From assembly GCA_045837725.1 (NCBI GenBank), contig JBEWZL010000235.1, forward strand, positions 186,001-250,000: 64,000 bases of DNA, given 5' to 3'. Positions 15,488 through 36,100 of this stretch are shown piece by piece. Each line of letters begins with the position of its first letter. Position 1 is the first letter of the stretch. The notes beneath the pieces are model-generated. The model was given only the letters and a program-made list of their open reading frames with translations, was not told the origin of the DNA and did not search any database. This stretch comes from Vermamoeba vermiformis (lineage: Eukaryota). The position numbers and the translations under genes were made by a program.

Positions 15488-18226
15488 ATGTTTAAAAAGA
15501 AAGAGAAGCCAGCGGAGGTGAAGAAGGATCTCTCCACTTCGCACTCGCGCAAAGATTCATCCAAGTCAGACCGCGAGGACGAGGACTCTGCTCAATTAGA
15601 CAAATTAGACGATAAAAAATCAGATTCACTCCCACCCAAGAAAGACAGCGGCATTAAAGATGAGTCAAATAGTAACGGCAGTAAATCTGCTGATCTATCA
15701 GACTCCTACAAGAAGCGAGAAGAGCGCAAGCGACAAAACAGTATAGACCAAGACATCACGACGAGTGGCGATGTAATTATTAGAATAGACAGTGCCCGCA
15801 GCGTCAAAGACAAGAAAAAGAGTTCAAAGAGCAGCGAAGATCACGCCACCAGCAAATCATCCTCGCGCAGCTTATTAAGGGTTGAAGAGCCTATTGTACA
15901 TATTCATCGCGATAACGAGGAGAAAATTGAAGCAGCAAGTGAATTAACAGAACTCGATAATTATCCGTTAGATCAGGACGACAATATTAAATTGGATGCA
16001 GCGTACAATAATTTCTCGAGCGATTTCATCAAAGCAGTCAACAAATTGCACGACATAAGTCGCAATGCAAATGGACAGATTATGCCTCCCGAAATTGTTT
16101 TAATTGGACCAACGTCGCATGGCAAATCTGCTCTTCTTGAAGCTTTGATAGGTACGTAACAGTGCATAAATAACTACACAACACAATTCAATTTTATGCG
16201 TGTACGTGAGAAGCGAATTTGATTCGTGTTCGCTGTTCCCACACAACAATTTTGTACTTTTGCCAAATAAGGCAATGACACGCCACTGATTGCGCGGTGA
16301 ATCACACGAACTGACACGCACCACTAGGTCAACAGTTCAATGCACTCGGACTCGGCGCAGTCACCAAGCGACCACTGCTGCTACAACTGCACCACGCCGC
16401 GAACAGTGCCGTGCAGTGGACCCTCAAGCGCGACACCCTCACACCTGGCGGGGCTGACCGTGTCGTGGACTGCAAGGAGCTCGCGGCGGAGATTGCCAAG
16501 CGCAGCAGCAAGTACAGCAAGACACCGATTGTGGTGCGCGTGGAGGGCAGTGCGGTGCTGAACATGCACTGGATCGACACCCCTGGCGTGCCGGCAGAAG
16601 AGAGTGCCGAGTACGAACAAGTGGTGGCGGTGGTGAGTGAGGTCACACGACCCCTGCACCGCATCATTGTGTGCGTGGAAGAGCTGCCGCACAGTGACTG
16701 GACGCAGCTGAAGATGCACAAGCTGATGAAGCAGCTCGATCCTGAACACGCGCGCACTGTGTTTGTATTCACGCGCATGCACTCGATACTGCGCGAGTAC
16801 ACCGCACTGCAGGACATCAACAAGCACTTGAATGCAGTGCCAGGTGACATCAAGCCCTGGTTGGTGTCGCTGCCTGCCACCAAGACGCGTCAATCACTCG
16901 CTGACACCACTGCCTATCGCAAGCGACTAGTGCAGGCAGCCAAGCGTGATGCGCGCACACTGGAGCAGCTGCACGGTGACAGGAAGTGGGAGACACAGCT
17001 CGGTGCCATCAACTTGCGCATGCACCTCAACGAGCGCGTGGTGCGCAGATACCGCGACCTCGTGCCTGAAGTGACCTCGCAGCTCAAACACACGCAGAGC
17101 GAGCACGACACGGCCCTCGCAGCACTCAAGAACAATCTGAGCTCACTGTCGCACGCCAAGCTGCGCACAGCCTCGCAGAACTACGTGGTAGAACTCGTGC
17201 ACGCGCTGGACAAGCTCGTGTCCGGCACGTCTGAGGCCCACGCGGCAGTGAATGGCCAGACACTGAGCGAAGAGAAGAGTGCGCAGGGTAATTTCGAGTG
17301 GAGCGACAACTTCAACAAGAAGATTCGCGTCGCTGAGCCCGACAAGTGGATCCCCTTCGCGAACAACAAGATCTACGGCGGACAACAGTTTGAACGGCTG
17401 CTCGCCGAGTTCAAGGTAAGTGCGCTGCAGGTAGCGCGGCCCCTCGTACTCACAACAATGCTACCATTAGGCGGTGTGCGACAGTGTAGAGCTGCCGAGT
17501 CCTTCGAGCGACGACATTGCGACCTCCGTGGGCACCAACAAGGTGAACAACGCGCCCAATCTCATCTGGGTGGCTGCAGACTACGCGCAACATCAGTCGA
17601 GTGAGCTGTTGAAGCCTCTGATCGATCAGCTGCTCAAGCGCGCCGTGTTCATCTTGCGTCGATTCGTGGAGGTGGCCGAGCGACTGGTGCTGAACGAGCA
17701 CAAGAAGAAGCAGCGCGCGGAGCTCGAGAACATGGAGCACTATCCCTACTTCACCAACTACACGCGCGACAACTACTACAAGTTCATCGATCGTCAGGCC
17801 AAGCAGTGTCGCGACAAGTGTCTGGACGAGTTCTACAGCACGCGCACCATCTACTGGGAGGTGTTGGACTACGCCACGGACAAGCTCAAAGCGGAGCCCA
17901 AGGCAGATGAGCTCAAAGCTGCCACCAAGCTCGCGAATGATGTCTTGAAGGTGGTGTTGACGCGCATCTCGAAGAACTTGCTGCTCAAGTGCTATCAGTG
18001 CTTGTTGGAGCCGTTGCAGACTGCACTGCTCGCCGATCTGCAGCACCAACTGCACGCCATGCGCGAGGAGGACATTGATCAACTGTTTCAACTCACTGCT
18101 GTTAAAGAGCGACTCAAGAGCGAAGAACATACGCACGAGAAAGCAATGGATGCGTGCGGAGAGTGGATGCGACAACTGATAGCAGTGAGTGAGCAGTTGA
18201 GTGCCTCGCTGAAACAAGACAAATAA
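15488..18226 (+). CDS. Dynamin-like protein, DRP5/Dlp (DlpA-C) type
   Basis: PEIVLIGPTSHGKSALLEALIG, VTKRPL, IDTPG and IYGGQQFERLLAEFK; charged low-complexity N-terminus; 3 exons. Confidence 0.85.
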
Positions 18227-18427
18227 TTGTAACATCATCGTAAATACTATATAATAAAACTGTACTATTGTTGATTGTCTTAGTCTCCGCACCGGTGCAT
18301 GACGATTGCACAGAAATCTCGCGTGTAATCTCCACTGCGTAAGATTATGTTCGACGAGCGCACAGATTTTATTAGCAGCAATACACAACCTCAAACAAAC
18401 AGTTATATAAGCATGGGCAGAGAATAA

Positions 18428-21400
18428 ATGACAACAGCCTATTGGGAGGGACAGATCAAGAGCTTAGAGGCTCAACTAAAAACTCTAAAAGAGAGGTTAG
18501 AAGAAGAAAAAGAACAGAAGAACGAGCTCGCACAGAACTTGCGCAACAAACAGAAAGAGGCGCGTGATGTTGAATACGAACTGCAGCGACAGAAAAGAGC
18601 GCAAGAGCAGTTGAAGGATCAGATTGAAAAATTCAAAAAGCAAAGTAAGTAATTTCAGTTCTATTTGCATCATATAGAGCCTAAAAATCGCTCGGGTTGA
18701 ATAAAATATTTGAAAAATTCGAATTTAAATTTTAGTTCGGAATTTCCTCTGTCGGTTCAAAGATATTTTTTTTGCGCATATTAACAATACCGAGCGATTT
18801 TAACGATTCAGGCGATTATATAAAACCTCAAGTTTATAAGTTTAACTTGGTACACAACTAATTGTTCCTCTCGAAATTCACAGTCATACAACTCGAGGCG
18901 GAGAATGACAGCAAAGAGGAGGACAAAGCGCGGCTGGACAAGGACAAAAAGACACTCGGCGACAAGGTGCGCAGCTTGGAGTCACAGCTCGCTGACTGGA
19001 CCGCGCGCTGCACCACCCTCGAGCGACGCCTGACACACGCCCTCGATGAGCTGCAGAGTCTCTCACACCGCGGGACAAGTGCAGGAGTGGCGGAGGAGAG
19101 CAGCGAGAGTCACGAACTGCGCGCTGAACTGCTGCGTGAGCGCGACAAGTGCAGCAGTTACGAGGTCAAGCTGCAGGTACTCGAAGACAAGCTCAAAAAG
19201 TTGCGCGAGGAGCAGAGCAGCAATGGTACGACGATTGACACGTGATTGGCGTGCTATTTTTAGCCGTTGAACTGACACGTGACAGGTACTGGCAATCACG
19301 AAGAGGTGAATGGCACGCGTCACAAGCAGGTCGAACAAGTGCAGCACGGTGTGGCACGCATCGAGCGACAATTGAATCTCGAGCGCGAGGCACGCGGCAG
19401 TGTGGAGCGTGAGCTGAAAGAACTCGAGCGCGAGATGAACAAACTGCGCGTCAGTCACGACAAGCAAGAGCGCGAGGTGCAGCGATTGACCTACGAGAAC
19501 GAGAGCTTGAAGGTCAGGTTGGAGCGCGAGACCAAGCGTCAACGGCTCGCAGTCGAGGGTACGTCACGTGACGGGAGATTTCAAGTGCTGAACTGATGAC
19601 GCGCGTGACAGGTCTAGCGAGCACACACAGCGAGACAGAGCTCAAACTGCGCCAAATTGAGCGCGAGAATGACAAACTGACGCGCAACATTGATCAGCTG
19701 AAGCGCGAGCACGAGAGTCACGTGCAACAGAGTGCGCGACGTGTGAGTGAACTGCAAGAGACGATTGCACAGCTGGAGAGCAGCAACAAACAGCTCACAC
19801 ACAAGGCTGCTGCACTCTACGCTGAGCTGCATCAAGACGAGAATGCGTGAGTACCGTACATACCTGTGTGTTTGTACAACAGCTCGATTGACCCTCGTGC
19901 TAGGGCCCAGAGTGCGCTAGAGCTCGAGCGACAACTCCTCGCTGAACAGCAACAAGCGCGCGATTCAGAGCACGAGCGCCAGTTGAACACTGAGCGTGCA
20001 CGCGTGCAGTTGATGGAAGAACAGCTGCGCGAACAAGTGGCGCTGAATCAACGGCAGCAGAGTGACAGTCGCCGCGAGATTGCAGCACTGCTCGCGGAAC
20101 AGGAGCAGAAGCAGCACAGCTTGACACAGCTGCAGCAGAGTGTGGAGGCCGAGCAGAAGCGGCGCACAGAGCTGCAACACCAACTGACGCAACAGCTGCA
20201 CGAGGAACAGGCGCGCAGAGTGGAGGAGAAGAAGCGCTTGGAGGCACAGCTGGAGCACGAGATTGAGAAGCGCAAGGCTGTGGAGCGATCAGTGGAGAGT
20301 CAAGAGCGCGCACAACTCGCGCACAGTCACGAGATTGAAGCGCAACAGCAACAGCGGCTGTTGGAGGAGCAGGCCAATCAGCAGCGCATTGAACAGCTCA
20401 GCAGTGAACTGCGCACCGTGCAGCAACAGCTCCAACAAGCACAGCAGCTCCAACAAGAGAGCGCACTCAAGTTCAAGAGCTACACGAGTGAGGTCGAGAC
20501 ACTCAAAGCACAGCTCAAGACCGCACAGGGCGAGTGTGAGCGCGTGCGTGAGGAACTAGAGCGAGCACGCAAAGAGAGCGAGGCCCACAAGCGCGATGTG
20601 GCGGTGAAAGAATTGGCGCTGAAGCAAGAGATTGAACAGCTGAGCTTGGAGAAGAAGAGCTTGCTGGAGCGATTGGCACCCATGCAAGCGAGCACGGATT
20701 CGAGCAGCACCGAGCTGTTGCAGGCCAAGCAAGAGGCCGAGAAGAGTTCGCAACAGCTCGAACAGACCAAGGCACGCCTCGCACTCGCACTGCAAGAGAT
20801 CACGCAGCTGCAGAGCGAACACAGCGCGCAACAAGGCAAGAACGAGCAGCACGTGGAGTCACTCAAGAGCGAGATCACGCGCCTGCAAGCTGAGAGTGCG
20901 CGTGTGGAGCAATTGACGCGTGAGCTGGAGAGCTTGCAAGTGGAGCACAAGAAGCTGCAGGGCACGCACGACCTCGTGGCCCAGCTGCAGAGTGAAGTGA
21001 AGCGCTTGCACCAGCAACAACAGCAGAGCAGCGCAGAGCACAGCAAGACACAGCTCGAGCTCACCAAGCAGCTCGATCAGCTCAAGCTCGAGAACAAGCA
21101 GCTGTTGCAGACCAATCAGGAGCTGGAGCGCGTGCGTGTCGAGCATCAAAAGCTGAGTGTCACCGTGCAAGAGCTCGAACTCACCGCACAGCGCCTGCAA
21201 TCAACTTCGCAGCAGCTCGACGAGTGCAACAAACAGCTGCAGACCGTGCAAGGACAGCTGCACAGTACGCAGGAGCAGCTGCAGCACAGCGAGAGCAAAG
21301 TGTTGCAACTGCAGCGCGAGAATGCCGAACTGCACGCGAACAAGAATGTGTTGGACGAGACCAAGCTGGCACTGCACCAGTCACAGCAGCAAGTGGCACA

Positions 21401-24027
21401 GTTGAGTGCACAGCTCAGCGAAGCAGGACAGAAACACGCGCACGAGTCTGAAGAGTTGACGCGCTCCAAGTCACAGCTCGTGGAAGAGAAGGGGGCGCTG
21501 GACAAGTTGCGCGCTGAACACGAGCGCGTGCAAGAGGAGTACCGCGCACGAGTGGAGGCACTGAACGGTGAACTGCAGGGCTTGAAACAGACGCAGAGTG
21601 AGCGCGATGCACTGATTGCACAGCTGCAGCACGACCTGAGTGCAGCACAGCACAGCGCACACCAGCACACACAACTGCAAGCGGAACTGACGCAGCTGCA
21701 GACCAGTCACCAAACACTGCAGAGCGAGGCACAACAGCTGCGCGACAAGGTGCAGTTGAGTGCCGCGAGTGAGTCCCAACAGCTCGCACAGCTCAATGCG
21801 CAAGTCACACAGCTGAGCAGCGAGCTGCAGTCACGCGACGAGCAGCTGAAGAGCGAGCAGCACGCCAAGTCACAGCTGAACACACAGCTAGAACTGCTCA
21901 TCCAAGAGAGCAGCAAACAACTCGCTGCTGCTGAGGGCGATGTCAAGACTGCACGCGATGAATTGACCGCTGCACGCACTGACCTGCAACAGCTGCACGA
22001 CACACTGAACGGAGTGCGTGCTGAATTGAGTGCCGCACTCGCCGAGGCCAACACGATGCGCGCGGAGAAGCAGACCGCGCACGAGGAGCTGACGAGAGTG
22101 CACGAGGAGCTGAGCAAGACACGCGAGTCCGCGAGTGAGCTGACAGCGCGCAACGAACGATTGGAGAGCAAAGAGCGCGAGCTGACGAGCACGCTGAGCG
22201 AGGTGACCAAGAAGAACGAAGAGCTGATCAAGAAACTGTTCGAGATGAGTGAGATCGGCACGCAGGGCACACTGCTCGGAGTGGCAGCCACGGACAAGAA
22301 GAACACTGCCGAGCAAGAGGTGCTCGATGAGCTGCACAAAGAGAACGAGAAGCTCAAGAAGAAGCTCGAGAAGCGCAGCAGTCGTCGCAACAGCTTGCGG
22401 TCCCTGAAGCGCATGTTCAGCAAGGACAAGATGACCGTTGAGCCCGTGCCCGAGGACCAAGCCGTGACGCCAGCGATTGAAGACACGACCTCCACCGATG
22501 AGATGTCGGAGCTCAAGAACGAGCTCAAGAGTCGCAACAAGCGGCTGATGGACTTCAAGCTCAAGTTGAAGCAGTGCGAGGCACAGCGTGATCGTCTGAC
22601 GCGCAAGAGCGAGTACTTGGACAAGGAGCTCAAGGGCAACGAGGGCTATCAAGCAGCCGTCAAGAAGTTCAGCACCCTGGTCCGCTCGCGCTCCAGACCC
22701 AGCAGTCTCGAAGTGGATCGCAAGACCTGGGCTGCAGTCAAGATTCAAGCGCTGTACCGTGGCTGGGCGCAGCGTCGTGTCTACAAGGAGATCAGTACGT
22801 ACTAGCACCTATATGTATATACACACCGGTCACTAGGCACTAACACCGCTGCAGAGACCCGCACGAGCATAGTGCGCGAGATTATGGACACGGAGGCGAG
22901 CTACGTCAAGGGCCTCGCATTCATCATCGACTACTTTGTGCTGCCCCTGCGTCTGTTGAGCGAGACTGAAGAGCCCGTGCTGACCAAAGAGGAGATCGAT
23001 GAGCTGTTCGGCAATGTGGAGGAGATTCGCGAGAAGAATGCCACGCTGTTGCGCAGATTGGAGGAGCGCATGACTGCTTGGAACGTGGACTCGACCATTG
23101 GCGATGTGTTCGTGCAATTGGTAAGTATTTAATAGATAATATATAATGGATACAATTCGAGCCGTTCTAACACCTCCCCAGCTGCACAATCAGTTCTTTG
23201 CCCCGCACACGCCGTACATTCAGAACTACAAGCACGTGCCCGAATTGAAGCTCAAGCTCGTCAACTCCAAGCCCGTGTTCGCGACCTTCCTCAAGTTCTT
23301 GAAGCTGATTCCCGTGCTCGAGGGCAAGACACTCGACGACTACCTCATCATTCCCGTGCAGCGCATCCCTCGCTACATCCTGCTGCTGACCGATCTCATG
23401 AAGCACACCACTGTCACGCACAGCGATTACAAGTCCGTGCAGAAAGCATTGCTCGGATTTCAAGAGCTGGCACTCTTCATCAACGAGAACCAGCGCCGTG
23501 CAGACAACATCACCGCACTCACTGAACGATTGCAGGGCTATGATGTACGTCATTAATATTAACTAGTTAAGCTGCCAGTACTAACCACTCCTAATCAGAA
23601 ATTGCCCGTCAATCCCGAGCGCGAATTGTTCCACGAGGGCAAGTTGCAGCAGCTCGTCAAAGACAACAAAGTCGAGCGCTTTGCCTTCCTGTTCAGCGAC
23701 TGTCTCGTGTTTGCCAAGCTCGCCAAGAAGCGACGCAGCACTGGGGCCTCGCTCAAAGCCGGATCCATGTCGCCCAAGACCGATGCCAAGGCACTGATCA
23801 TGTACAAGGTGTCGCACGTGATCATGCTCAACAAGCAGATGAAGTTCGAGGCCAAAGGTGACGTGGCCTTCTCGGTCAATGTCGATGGCAGTCAGAACTT
23901 CTTTGCCGCCGCCAACAAAGAGGAGCGCAAGACGTGGGAGGATCGCATCACGCAAGCACTGGCGCGTCTGCCTGCACTCAAGATGAAGCGACAGTCCACT
24001 GGCAGCAAGAGCTCCATTCACCAGTAA
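18428..24027 (+). CDS. Giant coiled-coil protein with IQ motif, RhoGEF (DH) and PH domains
   Basis: More than 1000 aa of Q/E/L heptads, then IQALYRGWAQRR, a DH domain (EIMDTEASYVKGL, LIIPVQRIPRYILLL) and a PH domain (FAFLFSDCLVF...ERKTWEDRI). Confidence 0.85.
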
Positions 24028-29261: not shown

Positions 29262-31230
29262 CTAAAGCACTCGTTCGGCAAAAGGCTTGGCGAAGAAGTG
29301 TTCAAATTGCCTGGCACTGACCACTGCACACCTTGCTGGCAACTCTTCTTCTCTGAAGTCACACTGGCTAGTGGTCACTACGAGCAACATCCAGTGCTTC
29401 AAGTGCGCTTTCTTCATCGCTTTCTTGACCTTGTTCACACTTGTCTCCACTTGCTCCAAGGTTAATTGCGCGGTATTGTAGTATTTAGTGCGACCACAGA
29501 TGAAGAAGCCGTTCTCGAGGCCCTCCACAGCAAAATTAACAAAAAAGTCGAATGGTGCACCTTCATTGTTGACGACCACCCGACCGGTGTTGCACCAATT
29601 AATGGGCATGCCACGCTCATCAACAAGCGTTCTTTTCGACGGGAACGTTTTGTTAGCTGTGAGTACTCTTCCGCAGTATTTCGTGTGCTTAGGGATGATG
29701 AGCTCGTAGTCTTGGACATCCTTAGCAATCACTGCACCGCGCAGCAATGTATGTACGTGCACCTGTCCTTCACCAAACGCAGCAATTCTCAATGCCAAGT
29801 ACTGTGCACAGAATCGTTCGAAGTGCTGCCGGGTAAACAGATCTCCATCGGTGCAGCTCTCGAGAGTGTAGCGCAACATTGAATGGAAGCGCTCGTTGTG
29901 GCCTGATGTCTGCTCCGTCCAAGCATGCAAGCTCAGGTATGGCCAGTAAGGTACGTTGTACTGATCGAATCTTAAGCCCAATTCTCGTTGTTCCAGCGAA
30001 TCAAAGGTCACGGAATTGCAGCCCGGTATCTCATCGCTGGATTGAGGAGCTCGTTTGACCATGGCAATGATGACATTCTCTAGTGAGACCTTGCTAGTTC
30101 CATCCCAACTGGTAGCCATAGATTTAGCGAGCACTTGTCGTACTATTGTCCAGTTCACGTCTGCAACAGAAGAGTACTTGCTCATCTGGATCACCAATGA
30201 CTCGATCGTTCGCGGATGTCCACCAATGTCTAGAAGCAGATTTCTCATGCACGCATTGGTGTATACTCCATTTGATTCGAAGTAGTTGGCGATGATGGTC
30301 AGGGCCGATGTTTCTGACAGCGGATCCAAGCGGTGGGGGCAGATGGGGAAAGTTGAATAATGGCCTGCATCAATGATAGACCGGCGAGACGTTCCAGCAA
30401 GAAGCACATAAATTCGGGTGTTGCTCGGAGGACAAAGCTTGGACCTTCCCAAAGCCTTAACGATCTGCCTGATCTCGAACGAAGAGCTCTCTCCTGGTGC
30501 ACCTGTTAAAAACTTGTTGTACTCATCAAGTCCTATTGCTATATTGAAAGTGACATCGTCACCGAGATTATGGGTCAGAATATAATCTTCGCGAATGAGT
30601 GCCAGTGCGGTGCGGATGGAGAAGGATGACTCGTCCAGGGGCTTCGTTAACTCGTACAAGTCACCGAGAACATCGTCTAAACACACATTAGGAGGTCCTT
30701 CGATGAAGTAGTGATACAGCAAGCGCAGAGCTAGGCATCGAGCTGGTGCCTTTCGGTCTATATCCGTGACCTCGTTGCCGTTGTTGTACGTCGCATGAAT
30801 GTACAGATAGTGTTGGAAGTGTTTTGCTACGGATTGGTGAGGTTGTTGCAATACTTCAGCCATAAACCGTGTTTTGCCTGATCCAGGTGTTCCAACAACA
30901 GCTTGTAACGGCCATTTCGTACGATCCGTAGTGCTGCAGTTCTTTTCTGTCAAGAATGTTTGCCATATCTGTTCGTATAGCTCGTTTCTGTCCATGAAGG
31001 TGAGTCTACGACCAACAGGGTTTATTCTCTGCAATAAAATTTAGCAGATTAGCAAAAGTCAAATGCGAACAAAGCATTATACGGACTTCGTAGTTAATGG
31101 GTTGTGATGATGGCTTTCTCATCGCGCGTAATTTCTCTCGAACCTCGTTAATTACCGCTAGGACATTTCTTTTTCTCGAGATCTTCGTCGGTGAAATTGC
31201 GCAGCCTCCATGTTCGGTAAAAGAAGACAT
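29262..31230 (-). CDS. Crinkler/RHS-type P-loop NTPase plus restriction-endonuclease-like effector
   Basis: Walker A GTPGSGKT, TYNNG, LALRLLY, Walker B IAIGLDEY, GGHPRTIE, FERFCAQY and REase-like NNEGAPFD..ICGRTK. One intron near 31032-31086. Confidence 0.72.
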
Positions 31231-31434: not shown

Positions 31435-32996
31435 TTAAGCTCGAATAGACATCTCTGTTTTGGCTGAGCTCGCCTTTCCTGCTCCTTGTGATGTGTAACC
31501 CGGAGTGCCTTGCGACGTGCGGCCCTCTTCTGGGGCAGGATTGCAAGGGCACAACAGATTGCGCCAGCGATTGATAATCTTCTTGTTCATACAGTAAGCT
31601 CCAAAGATGCACAAGCCCTATTACAGCTTTAGAATTTGTAGGGTTGCGATCGACCTCGAACCAACTCACCTGAGAAGGTACGGCAATTGAAAACAATACG
31701 GTAAATAGTTCTCGTGCAATATCGACGTTATTGAGAATAGCGACTAAAAAGCCAGTCACCCACACGAGACCCACGGAGACGAAAATGCTAATGAGAATGC
31801 GGCACTCATTCGCTTGCTTCTGATTAGAGCGGGAGTTCTACAACGCATATTAGTTAATACTGCATTGATGTGACTATGGTAAGGTTGAGATTACCTTCTT
31901 GAGTGTAGTGAGAATTTCACGCGCGACGAATGCAAAGAGCACCAAGTTGGCGCAGAACACTCCGACACCAGGCACGAAGAATGCGTAGGCAATGACACTG
32001 CTCTCGCGCAAGTAGCAACTGCCACCCTCGAATGCAGCGCCGTACTGATTGCCAATCGCGGCTAAGATCGTCACGATCACTAGCGGCACACCCCAGCCAA
32101 TCAAATGATAGAACTTCTCGAGATTGGCCGTCTCAGGGTACCGCTTGACAATCTACCAACGAGGATTAATACAAGGAGTTATAAGAAATAATACATACCA
32201 TCAAATAGAGGTTGATGGCAATGCACAGACACCAGAAGAAGTTGGTGAGGAAGAAGTAGTGAATCATCGCACCAGCCACGACACAGAAGTGATTGCCGTA
32301 GAGTGTTTGCGCACGATCAGCTTGTGTGGAGAGAATTGAGACCGCAAAAAATGTGGATTGGCCGCAGATGATGCAGACACACAAGTACATGATCAGTTTG
32401 ATGGCAAATGTGCGCACATTCTTGAATATGGTGAATGTGAGGATGGTGAAGAGTGCACCTGCAATCGACAGACTGAGCAGCACGAGTGTCAAGTAGCCGA
32501 CTGCGAGTCCGAATTCTTCGGTGATAATTAGATTAACGTCCGCGCAGCTGTAGTATTTTTGACCACCACCAGCAGTCGCATCAAATACGACGCGTAATAC
32601 ACCAAATCCAACCACGGTAGAGACGCCAGGCTTGGTCTGAATATTAATTGTAAAATTGAGCACTTGATTGTCTCCAGATTGCGGTTGGGCGAATGAAACC
32701 ACTTCTATTTCAGTTTCATTAACTCCTGATCGCTTCCACAGAAATTTGTAAGTATTTGAAGGGGAGTAGAAAGCGGTTCGTTGGTAGATCGAGACGACAA
32801 TATCCTCCCACGCATCCATCGTTGTAATATTTGCAATTCGTCCAAGACATTGTTCTTGAGTTATTCTACATTGTTCAATTGGTACCGTGGCATCGCAAAC
32901 AATTCTGGGTGTCGGGTAATAAAAACCAGCCGATGCGTAGGTACACCCAACAAATAATGCAGTAATTAGGCCAATATAGAAAAATCTGGTTGTCAT
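31435..32996 (-). CDS. 7TM GPCR (family-2/cAMP-receptor-like) with signal peptide and a ~135-aa ectodomain
   Basis: Seven hydrophobic segments with HYFFLTNFFWCLCIAINLY, YHLIGWGVP, CYL and Q|GLCIFGAYC. The last exon ends ...EMSIRA*. Confidence 0.85.
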
Positions 32997-33117
32997 ATTG
33001 ATTCTTCTATGTTAGTCAATGCTGAAATAGTTTAAATAATGACTGCAGAAAAAAACGTACCGATAAAATAAAATTCATAAAATTTGTCAGTCACGTTCTG
33101 ATCCCACAAGAAGGACC

Positions 33118-36100
33118 ATGGCTGAGATAGATAAGATTAGTTACAGCGGTCCTGTTACGGCACTTGCGTACTCCTTAGATGGAAAGTATTTACTGGCAGG
33201 TATGTAACGACGCGAGTGACAGATCCGATCGTGGCTAATCCTCACGGCGAAACTTAGCATATTTTTACCTAAATATAAACACAAAATATATTAGCAGATA
33301 TTTTAATATTTTTACTGATTTTTTCTGGAGGAATTGGACCCGAGTTGAAGATCTACGCTACCTTTACTGGCGAGCTGGTGACTTCAGAGTACTTATTCGA
33401 CGGTTGTAAAATTAATGGCATACGACTCGGTAAGAATAAAGTATATGCAAGCAACGTTGTTGACACTCAGTGCAGTTCAACGAGAATCAAATGATGACAC
33501 CAATGCGCTGCTGCTGTTTCTGTGGGGCCAGAAGCGAATGGCTGTATATGACTTGGAGCTCGGCAAGCATCAGTTAACGGTCAGTATTAAGCTCTTGGCG
33601 AAAATCAAGCAGTTCATGGATTGGATCTGGGATGTCATGCCACTTCCTAAAGCATTAGCCGAGCACCTCAATCTCAAATACGCCGATGATGAGTTATGCG
33701 CTATTGGCACTGCGCACAATAGAATTGAAATCTGGGACTGGCGACAACAGATCCGCGTGTGGCACCGTCAGTGCGAAGAGAACTGCATCATGTAAGCTAG
33801 GGCACGCGCATTGATAACTACTAACACTCCCTATAGATACAGCATGTCGATGTACGTTACAGACGATGCACAGTTGATAGTAGCTGTTGGCACGGTGTTC
33901 AATCAGATCTGGATCTGGCACCCGCTGCACTCAGAGAAGATCCTGACAAGACTATTGGGTCACGAGGTACAATTTGTATAATGTGCATATGTTTTACTAA
34001 TATTCACAGGGTGCTATATTCCGCATTCACTGGAGTGCTGATGGTACGCGGATGTGCACCACTTCCGATGACCGCACAGCACGTGTGTGGCACCATGTCC
34101 TCACTGCACGGTGTGTAGATATGGCACGAATATAGGACTAGACTGGACTAACATCTGGCAGGGGTGAGATTGCACCGTTCAAATCCTTCTACGGACACAA
34201 AGCACGCGTGTGGAGCTGTCTGTTTGCAGGCCCGTATCTCATCACTGCCGCAGAGGTACCACGCATATTACAGTGAGACTAGGGGTATTAATGTCGTGTC
34301 TGACAGGACTCCACGTGCTTGATATGGAACATTGAAAGGGGAGAAAAGCTGCAGTCGATTGAAGGACATCGTTCGAAGAGTGTCTGGGCCATTGCCATTG
34401 ACCCGTCACTGCGCATACTCGTGCGTGTCTATGATCACTATCAATTAGACTCCTCATATAATAATGCTCGTATATATAGGCCACTGGTGGCGGAGATTCG
34501 TTCGTCAAACAGTGGGACATCAATCACTTGGTTGACGGCAAGTCTTCGGGTGTCGAACACGCGTATGATGTGCCGCTGACTGATGTGCCGGTACGTACAC
34601 CTTAGTATCGCTATTGTATATCTGTCTGACACGAGTGCAGAATGTGGACAAGCAAAAAGACGAACACGTCAAAACAATTAAAATCATCGACGACAAGTCC
34701 ATTGTTCTGAGCACCAATCGCGGGTATGCACTGCGATATGAGTAACTGCAATAGGGCACTAATAATAGCTGCAGATTCGTGTACCGCTTTGATCGCCACA
34801 CCTTGACCTGGTCGCAATTGCACTTCTTCGCAGAGTCGCTGCAGAGTCATGTCGTGCAGTACTGCGCGTACGATGCACCACTGCAACTGTTGCTGTACGG
34901 CGACAACTTTGGCACTGTGACTCTCATGTCACTGCTCGCTGATGGCAGTGTGGCTAAGGTCAGTGAGAGGACTTTATATGCGCCATACTGACCATGCACA
35001 GGTCCACCAGTTCACCGCTTCAACTCTGCGCATCGTGTACATGCACGTGCATCGATTGAAAGAGCAAAACGACAATGAATTCTGTTTGTTTGTATCCACC
35101 GTGGAAGGAGAGCTGCAGTTGTGGCATGTGAATATGAATGTATGCACGGACAATAACATATGTGATGTGCTAATACTGTATATAGGAGCTGCAATGGAAT
35201 TTGATCAAAACATTCAAGCTGGGACGTCGTGACTCAGTGTGGAGCATAGCCGTGGATGAAGAGTACAAGAGCGTCGTGTGCGGTGATGGACGAGGTGCAA
35301 TTCACCTCTTTGAACTGCCCGCACTCAGCACTGCACTCGCTGAGCCCTCGTTGCCGCACTTCACTCTGCGACAAATGCACGATCAAGAGCGCGTGAGCTG
35401 TTTGTTGATCACCAAAGACAAAGAAATCTACAGCGGAGGTCGCAATGGGCACGTGAACAAGTTCAAATTTGAAGGCACACCTGGTCACACTAATGTGCGG
35501 CTCGTCAAAGTGTCTTCAGCCAAAGCCTACAAGAACATGGACTACGTAGAGTCTATTTTTAGCATCGGAGATGTGACTGACATGCCCGACAATGACGATG
35601 ACAGCGGCAGTGAGGCTGAGAGTGATGAGGAAGAACATCTGGCCTCGCACAGTGAAGAGGTGCAGCAAAGCAGTCGCGAGCACTTGATGCTGCACGGCTT
35701 CTACGGTGCCAATGCCGTGTATTACGACTGGAGTGAACAGAGTGTGGTCACTACTATCGCGTGTGGTGGCAGCAAACGTCCCTACGACTGTCACTATGCA
35801 GCGCTCTCGCACGACGAGGGAGCTGATGTGCAGTACTGCATGGCGTACTCTAAGGCCAAACAGCTGCACATCTACACGACACAGCCCAAAGAGCGCGTGT
35901 TTGCGAACACTATTCTGCACCCTCCATTCCATGGTCGACAAGCCAACTCTGTGACATTGATTAATGACCCCTCGCACTCGAAACAGATGTACTTCGCGAC
36001 CACTAGCGAGGACACGACTGTGAAGCTGTTTAAATATGGTACCGACAACAATGAGCTAATTAGATGATGCTGACGCTCCACAGATATGCAACAACCTGCT

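Follow-up and report, generated by a model that had tools for sequence, protein, structure and literature searches.

The gene at 32996..31435 on the reverse strand of the window (the whole stretch of 64,000 nucleotides analysed here) is real and conserved, and is predicted to encode a seven-transmembrane (7TM) receptor of the 7tm_2/cAMP-receptor-like kind, for which coupling to G proteins is likewise predicted. According to the structure model, a single compact domain with an LPMO fold, of the BIM1/X325 type, makes up the whole of its extracellular N-terminus. No alignment could give this ectodomain a histidine brace: residues 1–159 of the receptor contain no histidine at all, as counted by script. 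The reading that we favour, with a probability of roughly 60%, is that a copper-less surface protein was fused to the 7TM core, and that the domain would serve as a ligand- or contact-recognition module.

Gene model and seven-helix core

The exons were read by eye and checked by script. The receptor gene consists of four exons, and its spliced coding sequence of 1407 nt contains one stop codon, which is terminal, giving a protein of 468 amino acids. The positions of its parts are collected in Table 1. The ectodomain and TM1–3 lie within one exon; the fusion is therefore independent of splicing and is read directly from the DNA.

Table 1. Features of the receptor gene, in window coordinates
Feature	Position	Strand	Basis or remark
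Start codon and signal peptide, aa 1–21	32934..32996	-	ATG is the first after an in-frame stop; Kyte-Doolittle window aa 5–23
LPMO-fold (BIM1/X325-like) ectodomain as modelled, aa 22–159 (138 aa)	32520..32933	-	AlphaFold2, Foldseek, structure alignment
Exon 1	32996..32199	-	Leader, ectodomain and TM1–3
Exon 1 remainder: linker of about 6 residues, TM1, TM2, TM3	32199..32519	-	Pfam 7tm_2 and hydropathy
Intron 1, 46 nt, GT..AG	32153..32198	-	Position same in ortholog L001
Exon 2, aa 267–352: TM4, TM5	31895..32152	-	Pfam 7tm_2, Dicty_CAR, hydropathy
Intron 2, 57 nt, GT..AG	31838..31894	-	Position kept in L001
Exon 3, aa 353–408: TM6 and first part of TM7	31670..31837	-	Hydropathy, tblastn to L001/L002
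Intron 3, 52 nt, GT..AG	31618..31669	-	Position kept in L001
Exon 4, aa 409–468 and TAA: rest of TM7, cytoplasmic tail	31435..31617	-	Open frame requires this splice

The spliced product has a signal peptide and seven Kyte-Doolittle hydrophobic segments, with TM1–3 at approximately residues 160–185, 193–224 and 243–269 and the segments of TM6 and TM7 at 363–390 and 395–417. Pfam 7tm_2 (PF00002; gathering score 20.6 bits) matched exon 1 at 39.8 bits (E = 4.1e-10; amino acids 166–266 on profile positions 4–105) and exon 2 at 43.4 bits (E = 3.3e-11; profile positions 111–188). The profile thus runs consecutively from exon 1 into exon 2, which supports the first splice. Dicty_CAR (PF05462; gathering score 21 bits) was matched by exon 2 alone at 31.8 bits (E = 1.1e-7) and by exon 1 alone at 14.5 bits. 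Exons 3 and 4 gave no Pfam match when each was scanned alone, and are too short to score in this way. No Pfam match at E ≤ 1 to a secretin-type hormone-receptor domain or a GAIN domain was found before TM1; the space ahead of TM1 is taken up by the LPMO-fold domain.

A word-based search (59 candidates) returned five close relatives, P0001–P0005, with 79–99% identity, all of them single open reading frames. P0001–P0004 carry the entire ectodomain and TM1–3 in one frame and share the start codon of the receptor, and P0005 starts inside the ectodomain. The fusion of an LPMO-like ectodomain to a 7TM part, as claimed in the initial annotation, is accordingly found within a single exon in the window and is kept in the relatives. 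A scan of metagenomes gave two loci, L001 and L002. L001 has three introns at positions identical to those of the window gene; its exons are 77–78% identical to those of the window and its introns 48–55% (48% for intron 1 and 77% for the exon). Intron 1 of L001 (3139–3198, 60 nt) starts with GCATGT and is of the GC..AG type, versus GT..AG in the window. L002 comprises the TM4–7 exons of a further relative of the receptor. By tblastn, exon 3 shares 86% of its amino acids with L001 and L002, and exon 4 shares 83–85%. Nei–Gojobori dN/dS between the window gene and L001 comes to 0.13 in the ectodomain and to 0.04 across the 7TM part; both halves of the receptor are thus under purifying selection.

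In a scan without length limits, the libraries for which mostly lack eukaryotic multi-exon models, the domain was joined to a 7TM part only in close relatives. A search for longer fused proteins of 467–2000 amino acids scored none of 218 candidates, the ESM Atlas gave no usable match with the entire exon 1, and local tblastn found no second copy of the receptor gene within the 64-kb window. The fusion receptor could be young, lineage-specific and of minor role.

In three raw RNA-seq runs labelled with the same species, no reads fell on the receptor gene, which is not a test of expression, and two partly fitting reads fell on the neighbouring gene, both in one run. The database relatives of the receptor are all prokaryote-style ORF calls that run through intron 1. 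Both observations would agree with an artefact or a pseudogene, in which no single functional protein would unite the ectodomain with the 7TM part. This explanation is hardly credible: the ectodomain and TM1–3 form an uninterrupted frame in the window and in four relatives, the introns have canonical borders and conserved positions and leave the frames intact, and dN/dS falls well short of 1 for each half.

A divergent gene with many introns (33110–36067, forward strand) starts 113 bp from the receptor ATG. The short gap suggests a compact genome, and the two genes may share a promoter region. The largest exon of this gene has weak matches to WD40/β-propeller families (E = 3e-4 to 6e-3, all below threshold). 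Downstream of the receptor, an open frame of 592 amino acids (29265–31040, reverse strand; possible upstream exon near 31229) contains the P-loop GTPGSGKTRF; its sole Pfam match is AAA_22 (E = 0.005, below threshold) and it is presumably an NTPase. The region 16001–24000 has a GC content of 0.53–0.57, versus 0.41–0.51 elsewhere in the window, and a strong AT skew of 0.21–0.31.

Sequence and fold of the ectodomain

The stretch 32996..32520 (reverse strand) translates as MTTRFFYIGLITALFVGCTYA followed by SAGFYYPTPR, later by QCLGRIANITT and then by GVLRVVFDATAGGGQKYYSCADVNLIITEEF, with the first hydrophobic segment directly after. The start SAGFYYPTPR, the CLG..ITT segment and the end YYSCADV before TM1, on which the initial annotation was built, are all present on translation. 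The signal peptide comprises the n-region MTTR, a hydrophobic core and the c-region CTYA. Its cleavage site was assessed by the -3/-1 rule only, which is satisfied by cleavage after TYA, leaving Ser22 as the first residue, as well as after ASA, leaving Gly24. It is the Ser22 register that aligns with His1 of P0008, a free relative, and with residue 1 of solved LPMO chains. Four cysteines are present in the mature ectodomain, and three N-x-S/T sequons occur, at positions 56, 93 and 114. The motifs SAGF..P.PR, NT(Y) and GGG.(V)YYSC.D go beyond chance, as they are kept in distant relatives that an unbiased HMMER scan found among 1.84 billion proteins.

The ectodomain was modelled with AlphaFold2 from a shallow alignment of 16 rows. 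The model (pLDDT 88.9, pTM 0.85) is built of eight strands and a single short helix. A Foldseek search of the PDB returned 21 matches at E ≤ 1e-3, comprising 19 LPMO or LPMO-like chains and two superoxide reductases; coverage was highest in AfAA11B, with TMq 0.63, and in LaX325, with TMq 0.62 and TMt 0.58. Structural alignment (VIA) was performed over 48,161 PDB representatives, and the best 17 were all LPMO or LPMO-like, with Z scores of 12.4–9.3. These include TdAA15A (PDB entry 5msz; Z = 12.4), LaX325 (PDB entry 6ibh; Z = 12.1, r.m.s.d. 2.6, 121 aligned residues of 150) and ScLPMO10C (AA10; Z = 12.0); the remainder, with Z no lower than 9.3, are fusolin and further chains of AA10, AA13, AA11 and AA16. 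In the structural alignment, residue 1 of the model was aligned with residue 1 of the chains of the LPMO matches.

The model, Foldseek and structural alignment agree on the LPMO/BIM1-like fold proposed for the ectodomain at the outset, and none of the alternative folds named there (DOMON, reeler and ML) is among the top structural matches. Unrelated β-sandwiches of the Ig/FnIII type also reach Z = 7–8.7 in the same structural alignment, so that the fold alone reveals little of the function. When the PDB was searched by sequence with the ectodomain, profile A2 and P0008, only chance-level matches were obtained (uS17, lipoprotein lipase and P2X; E = 0.2–1.8).

Free relatives and putative copper positions

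A HMMER search with the N-terminal 159 amino acids against 1.84 billion representatives gave 16 matches at E ≤ 1e-3: two receptor orthologs, four long repeat proteins and ten short secreted proteins. The short secreted proteins are P0008, P0009, P0011 and P0013–P0019, with E values from 8.8e-10 (P0008) to 9e-4. P0006, P0007, P0010 and P0012 were excluded by eye as repeat-driven matches, with 8–21 short stretches each. A profile search contributed two more relatives, P0020 and P0021, and put names to two of the matches, Cavenderia fasciculata DFA_09133 and Heterostelium album PPL_04999. As judged by eye, the free relatives start with a leader, continue with the domain and a Ser/Thr-rich stretch, and end in a hydrophobic C-terminus; apparently, they are a small family of secreted, GPI-tailed proteins in dictyostelids. 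None of the ten free relatives scanned had a 7TM match. The secreted protein P0013 (395 amino acids) carries a partial copy of the domain followed by a complete one, and the module thus also exists as a tandem repeat. Viral contigs were scanned with profile A2, and none of eight pattern matches was confirmed.

The only Pfam family matched by the window ectodomain is PF20238 (BIM1-like), which was matched at E ≤ 1 by six of 11 proteins. Its gathering score (27 bits) was passed by P0008 alone, at 31.3 bits; P0004 scored 17.3 bits (E = 0.0066) and the window ectodomain 13.4 bits (E = 0.11). The window ectodomain is below the threshold and is tied to the family via its homology to P0008. The C-terminal part of P0014 matches the final stretch of LPMO_10 (profile positions 136–183 of 183; E = 0.0029). 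Among ESM-Atlas features, BIM1-like, LPMO_10 and SCE4755 clusters were found at 0.87–0.82, and these are leads only.

P0008 (188 amino acids) has exactly two histidines in the domain, at columns 1 and 55 of alignment A3, and its N-terminus reads H-x5-P-x-P-R. Because its only two histidines sit there, we infer from the alignment that columns 1 and 55 are the copper brace positions. Among the 12 rows with a residue at column 1, histidine occurs once (P0008), serine six times (the five receptor rows and P0009) and asparagine five times. Column 55 (16 rows) holds histidine in six rows, phenylalanine in seven (the receptor rows, P0015 and P0020) and arginine, tryptophan and tyrosine in one each. 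The missing histidine brace reported in the initial annotation is therefore borne out, with Ser and Phe at the two histidine columns of P0008. Without a brace, the ectodomain cannot be an oxidase, and a role in copper uptake is ruled out as the mechanism of the receptor.

Most of the free dictyostelid relatives also lack His1, and two of the seven that are complete at the N-terminus (P0009 and P0019) have a domain free of histidine, so that the loss of copper is not special to the receptor. P0008 is the only relative that both has the two putative brace histidines and passes the PF20238 threshold. It is likely to be a genuine copper-binding member, and would form a bridge between the His-less family and X325/Bim1.

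Sensing of a metal (copper) through ligands other than histidine would be in keeping with descent from a copper-binding family and with the conserved tyrosine of YYSC, the first Tyr of which we take to be the axial Tyr/Phe position of LPMOs. However, the ectodomain has no histidine to offer, with Ser and Phe in the brace columns, the four cysteines are all conserved, in an arrangement compatible with disulfides, and no alternative cluster of ligands is evident. We consider such a metal sensor extremely improbable.

Proposed recognition role and known systems

In the favoured reading, a copper-less member of the family would have been joined to a 7TM core within a single, narrow lineage of protists, and its domain would act as the ligand- or contact-recognition module of the receptor, with the partner bound on the former copper face. 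This face is probably oriented away from the membrane, as the last β-strand (model residues 126–136) would span the full sandwich from the YYSC motif and lead straight into TM1 (the 7tm_2 match starts at precursor residue 166); the orientation was read from the alignment and the DSSP string. Q51, N60, T61, Q83, GGG and YYSC, which are kept across relatives of 30% identity, may mark a binding site retained on that face. The short linker would relay binding rigidly to the helix bundle and then to the G protein.

The ligand would be a glycan or polysaccharide with a chance of about one in four, and another extracellular partner (a protein, a glycoprotein or a small molecule) is more likely. The polysaccharide version of the mechanism, which the initial annotation had put forward, is possible and is not favoured. 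A dead LPMO domain would here keep a flat glycan-binding face and report chitin, cellulose or polymers of prey walls. We regard such a sensor as unlikely, even though the fold is common to the chitin- and cellulose-active AA15, AA10, AA11 and AA9 families, aromatic residues (FYY at 4–6 and F55/Y56) are near the N-terminal face in sequence, Cavenderia DFA_09133 is labelled as carbohydrate-binding-domain-containing by UniRef, and orthologous DNA occurs in metagenome runs from water, aquifer and soil. BIM1/X325 is the sole family linked to the ectodomain by sequence, and in the available parts of the reviews its X325 members have shown no polysaccharide-degrading activity and Bim1 has no appropriate polysaccharide-binding site (PMC7924993; PMC10952591). 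Furthermore, the receptor domain is a minimal one of 138 amino acids and has none of the extended surface loops that AA9, AA10 and AA15 possess (targets of 166–235 residues).

A domain with no outside ligand would be a structural cap, a module for self-association or adhesion, or a modulator of basal activity or trafficking. The linker of about six residues would press the domain against the extracellular loops, β-sandwiches often mediate protein–protein contacts (many of the structural matches are Ig/FnIII-like) and the free relatives are apparently tethered to the surface, all of which would suit such a function. It is nevertheless quite improbable in view of the purifying selection indicated across the entire ectodomain (dN/dS of 0.13), and since the conserved residues listed above suggest a specific site and not a spacer.

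To our knowledge, LPMO-fold proteins have nearly always been studied as copper enzymes or copper carriers, and the ectodomains of protist GPCRs are largely uncharted. An LPMO fold without a brace, joined to a 7TM core, conserved and under selection, would offer a testable case of an enzyme scaffold reused in a receptor. Beside it would stand a small family of BIM1-like surface proteins of amoebae that mostly lack His1 and whose role cannot be copper chemistry. A more far-reaching view, which we hold to be doubtful, is that the receptor is the first GPCR with an LPMO-fold sensor and that the His-less BIM1/X325-like proteins of amoebae are a hidden family of recognition modules, not copper handlers. 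If this were true, the targets recognized by the family would be wall polymers of prey or substrate, or cell–cell identity, and copper-less LPMO-like proteins would generally become candidates for non-enzymatic sensing. A wall polymer as the ligand would give phagotrophs a new route to sense food or surfaces.

No description of an LPMO-fold ectodomain in a GPCR was found in the main texts of openly accessible papers, and a term search of the main text available for two GPCR surveys (PMC12716839; PMC10445921) gave no mention of LPMO, BIM1 or monooxygenase. In the portion of the dictyostelid survey used here, a mixture of 7tm_2 and Dicty_CAR is described in one Crl clade (PMC10445921), and exon 2 of the receptor, scanned alone, likewise has matches to both families. 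According to the same portion, no further domain could be detected at the N-terminus of family 2 GPCRs from amoebozoans (PMC10445921). In contrast to these, the receptor is predicted to have a folded domain of 138 amino acids before TM1.

The X325/Bim1 proteins resemble the receptor ectodomain in that a small LPMO-type β-sandwich directly follows the signal peptide and is tethered to the membrane at its C-terminus. As far as the accessible text of the sources goes, they have a histidine brace with a further Asp ligand and a C-terminal GPI anchor (PMC10952591), and a role in copper uptake (PMC7924993; PMC10952591). In the receptor, the tether is instead the 7TM core, and both histidine columns are replaced. 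The catalytic LPMOs (AA15, PDB entry 5msz; AA10, PDB entries 4oy7 and 5wsz; AA11, AA9, AA13, AA16 and fusolin) have the same fold, with the N-terminus at residue 1, whereas the receptor domain is far shorter, at 138 amino acids, and has no copper ligands and hence no oxidative chemistry.

Loss of the brace within an LPMO fold has a precedent in an AA9-like protein without a histidine brace, reportedly described by Frandsen and co-workers in 2019, which is said to be fungal and secreted and is not a receptor. The use of an LPMO domain as a recognition surface, as proposed here for the receptor, has its closest likeness in CWR-1, an AA11 chitin PMO of Neurospora crassa. In the part of the report that was available, allorecognition by CWR-1 is independent of catalysis, and its histidine-brace mutants are functional (PMC9550227). 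Unlike the receptor, CWR-1 is an active secreted enzyme that is not fused to a receptor and has a separate membrane partner, CWR-2.
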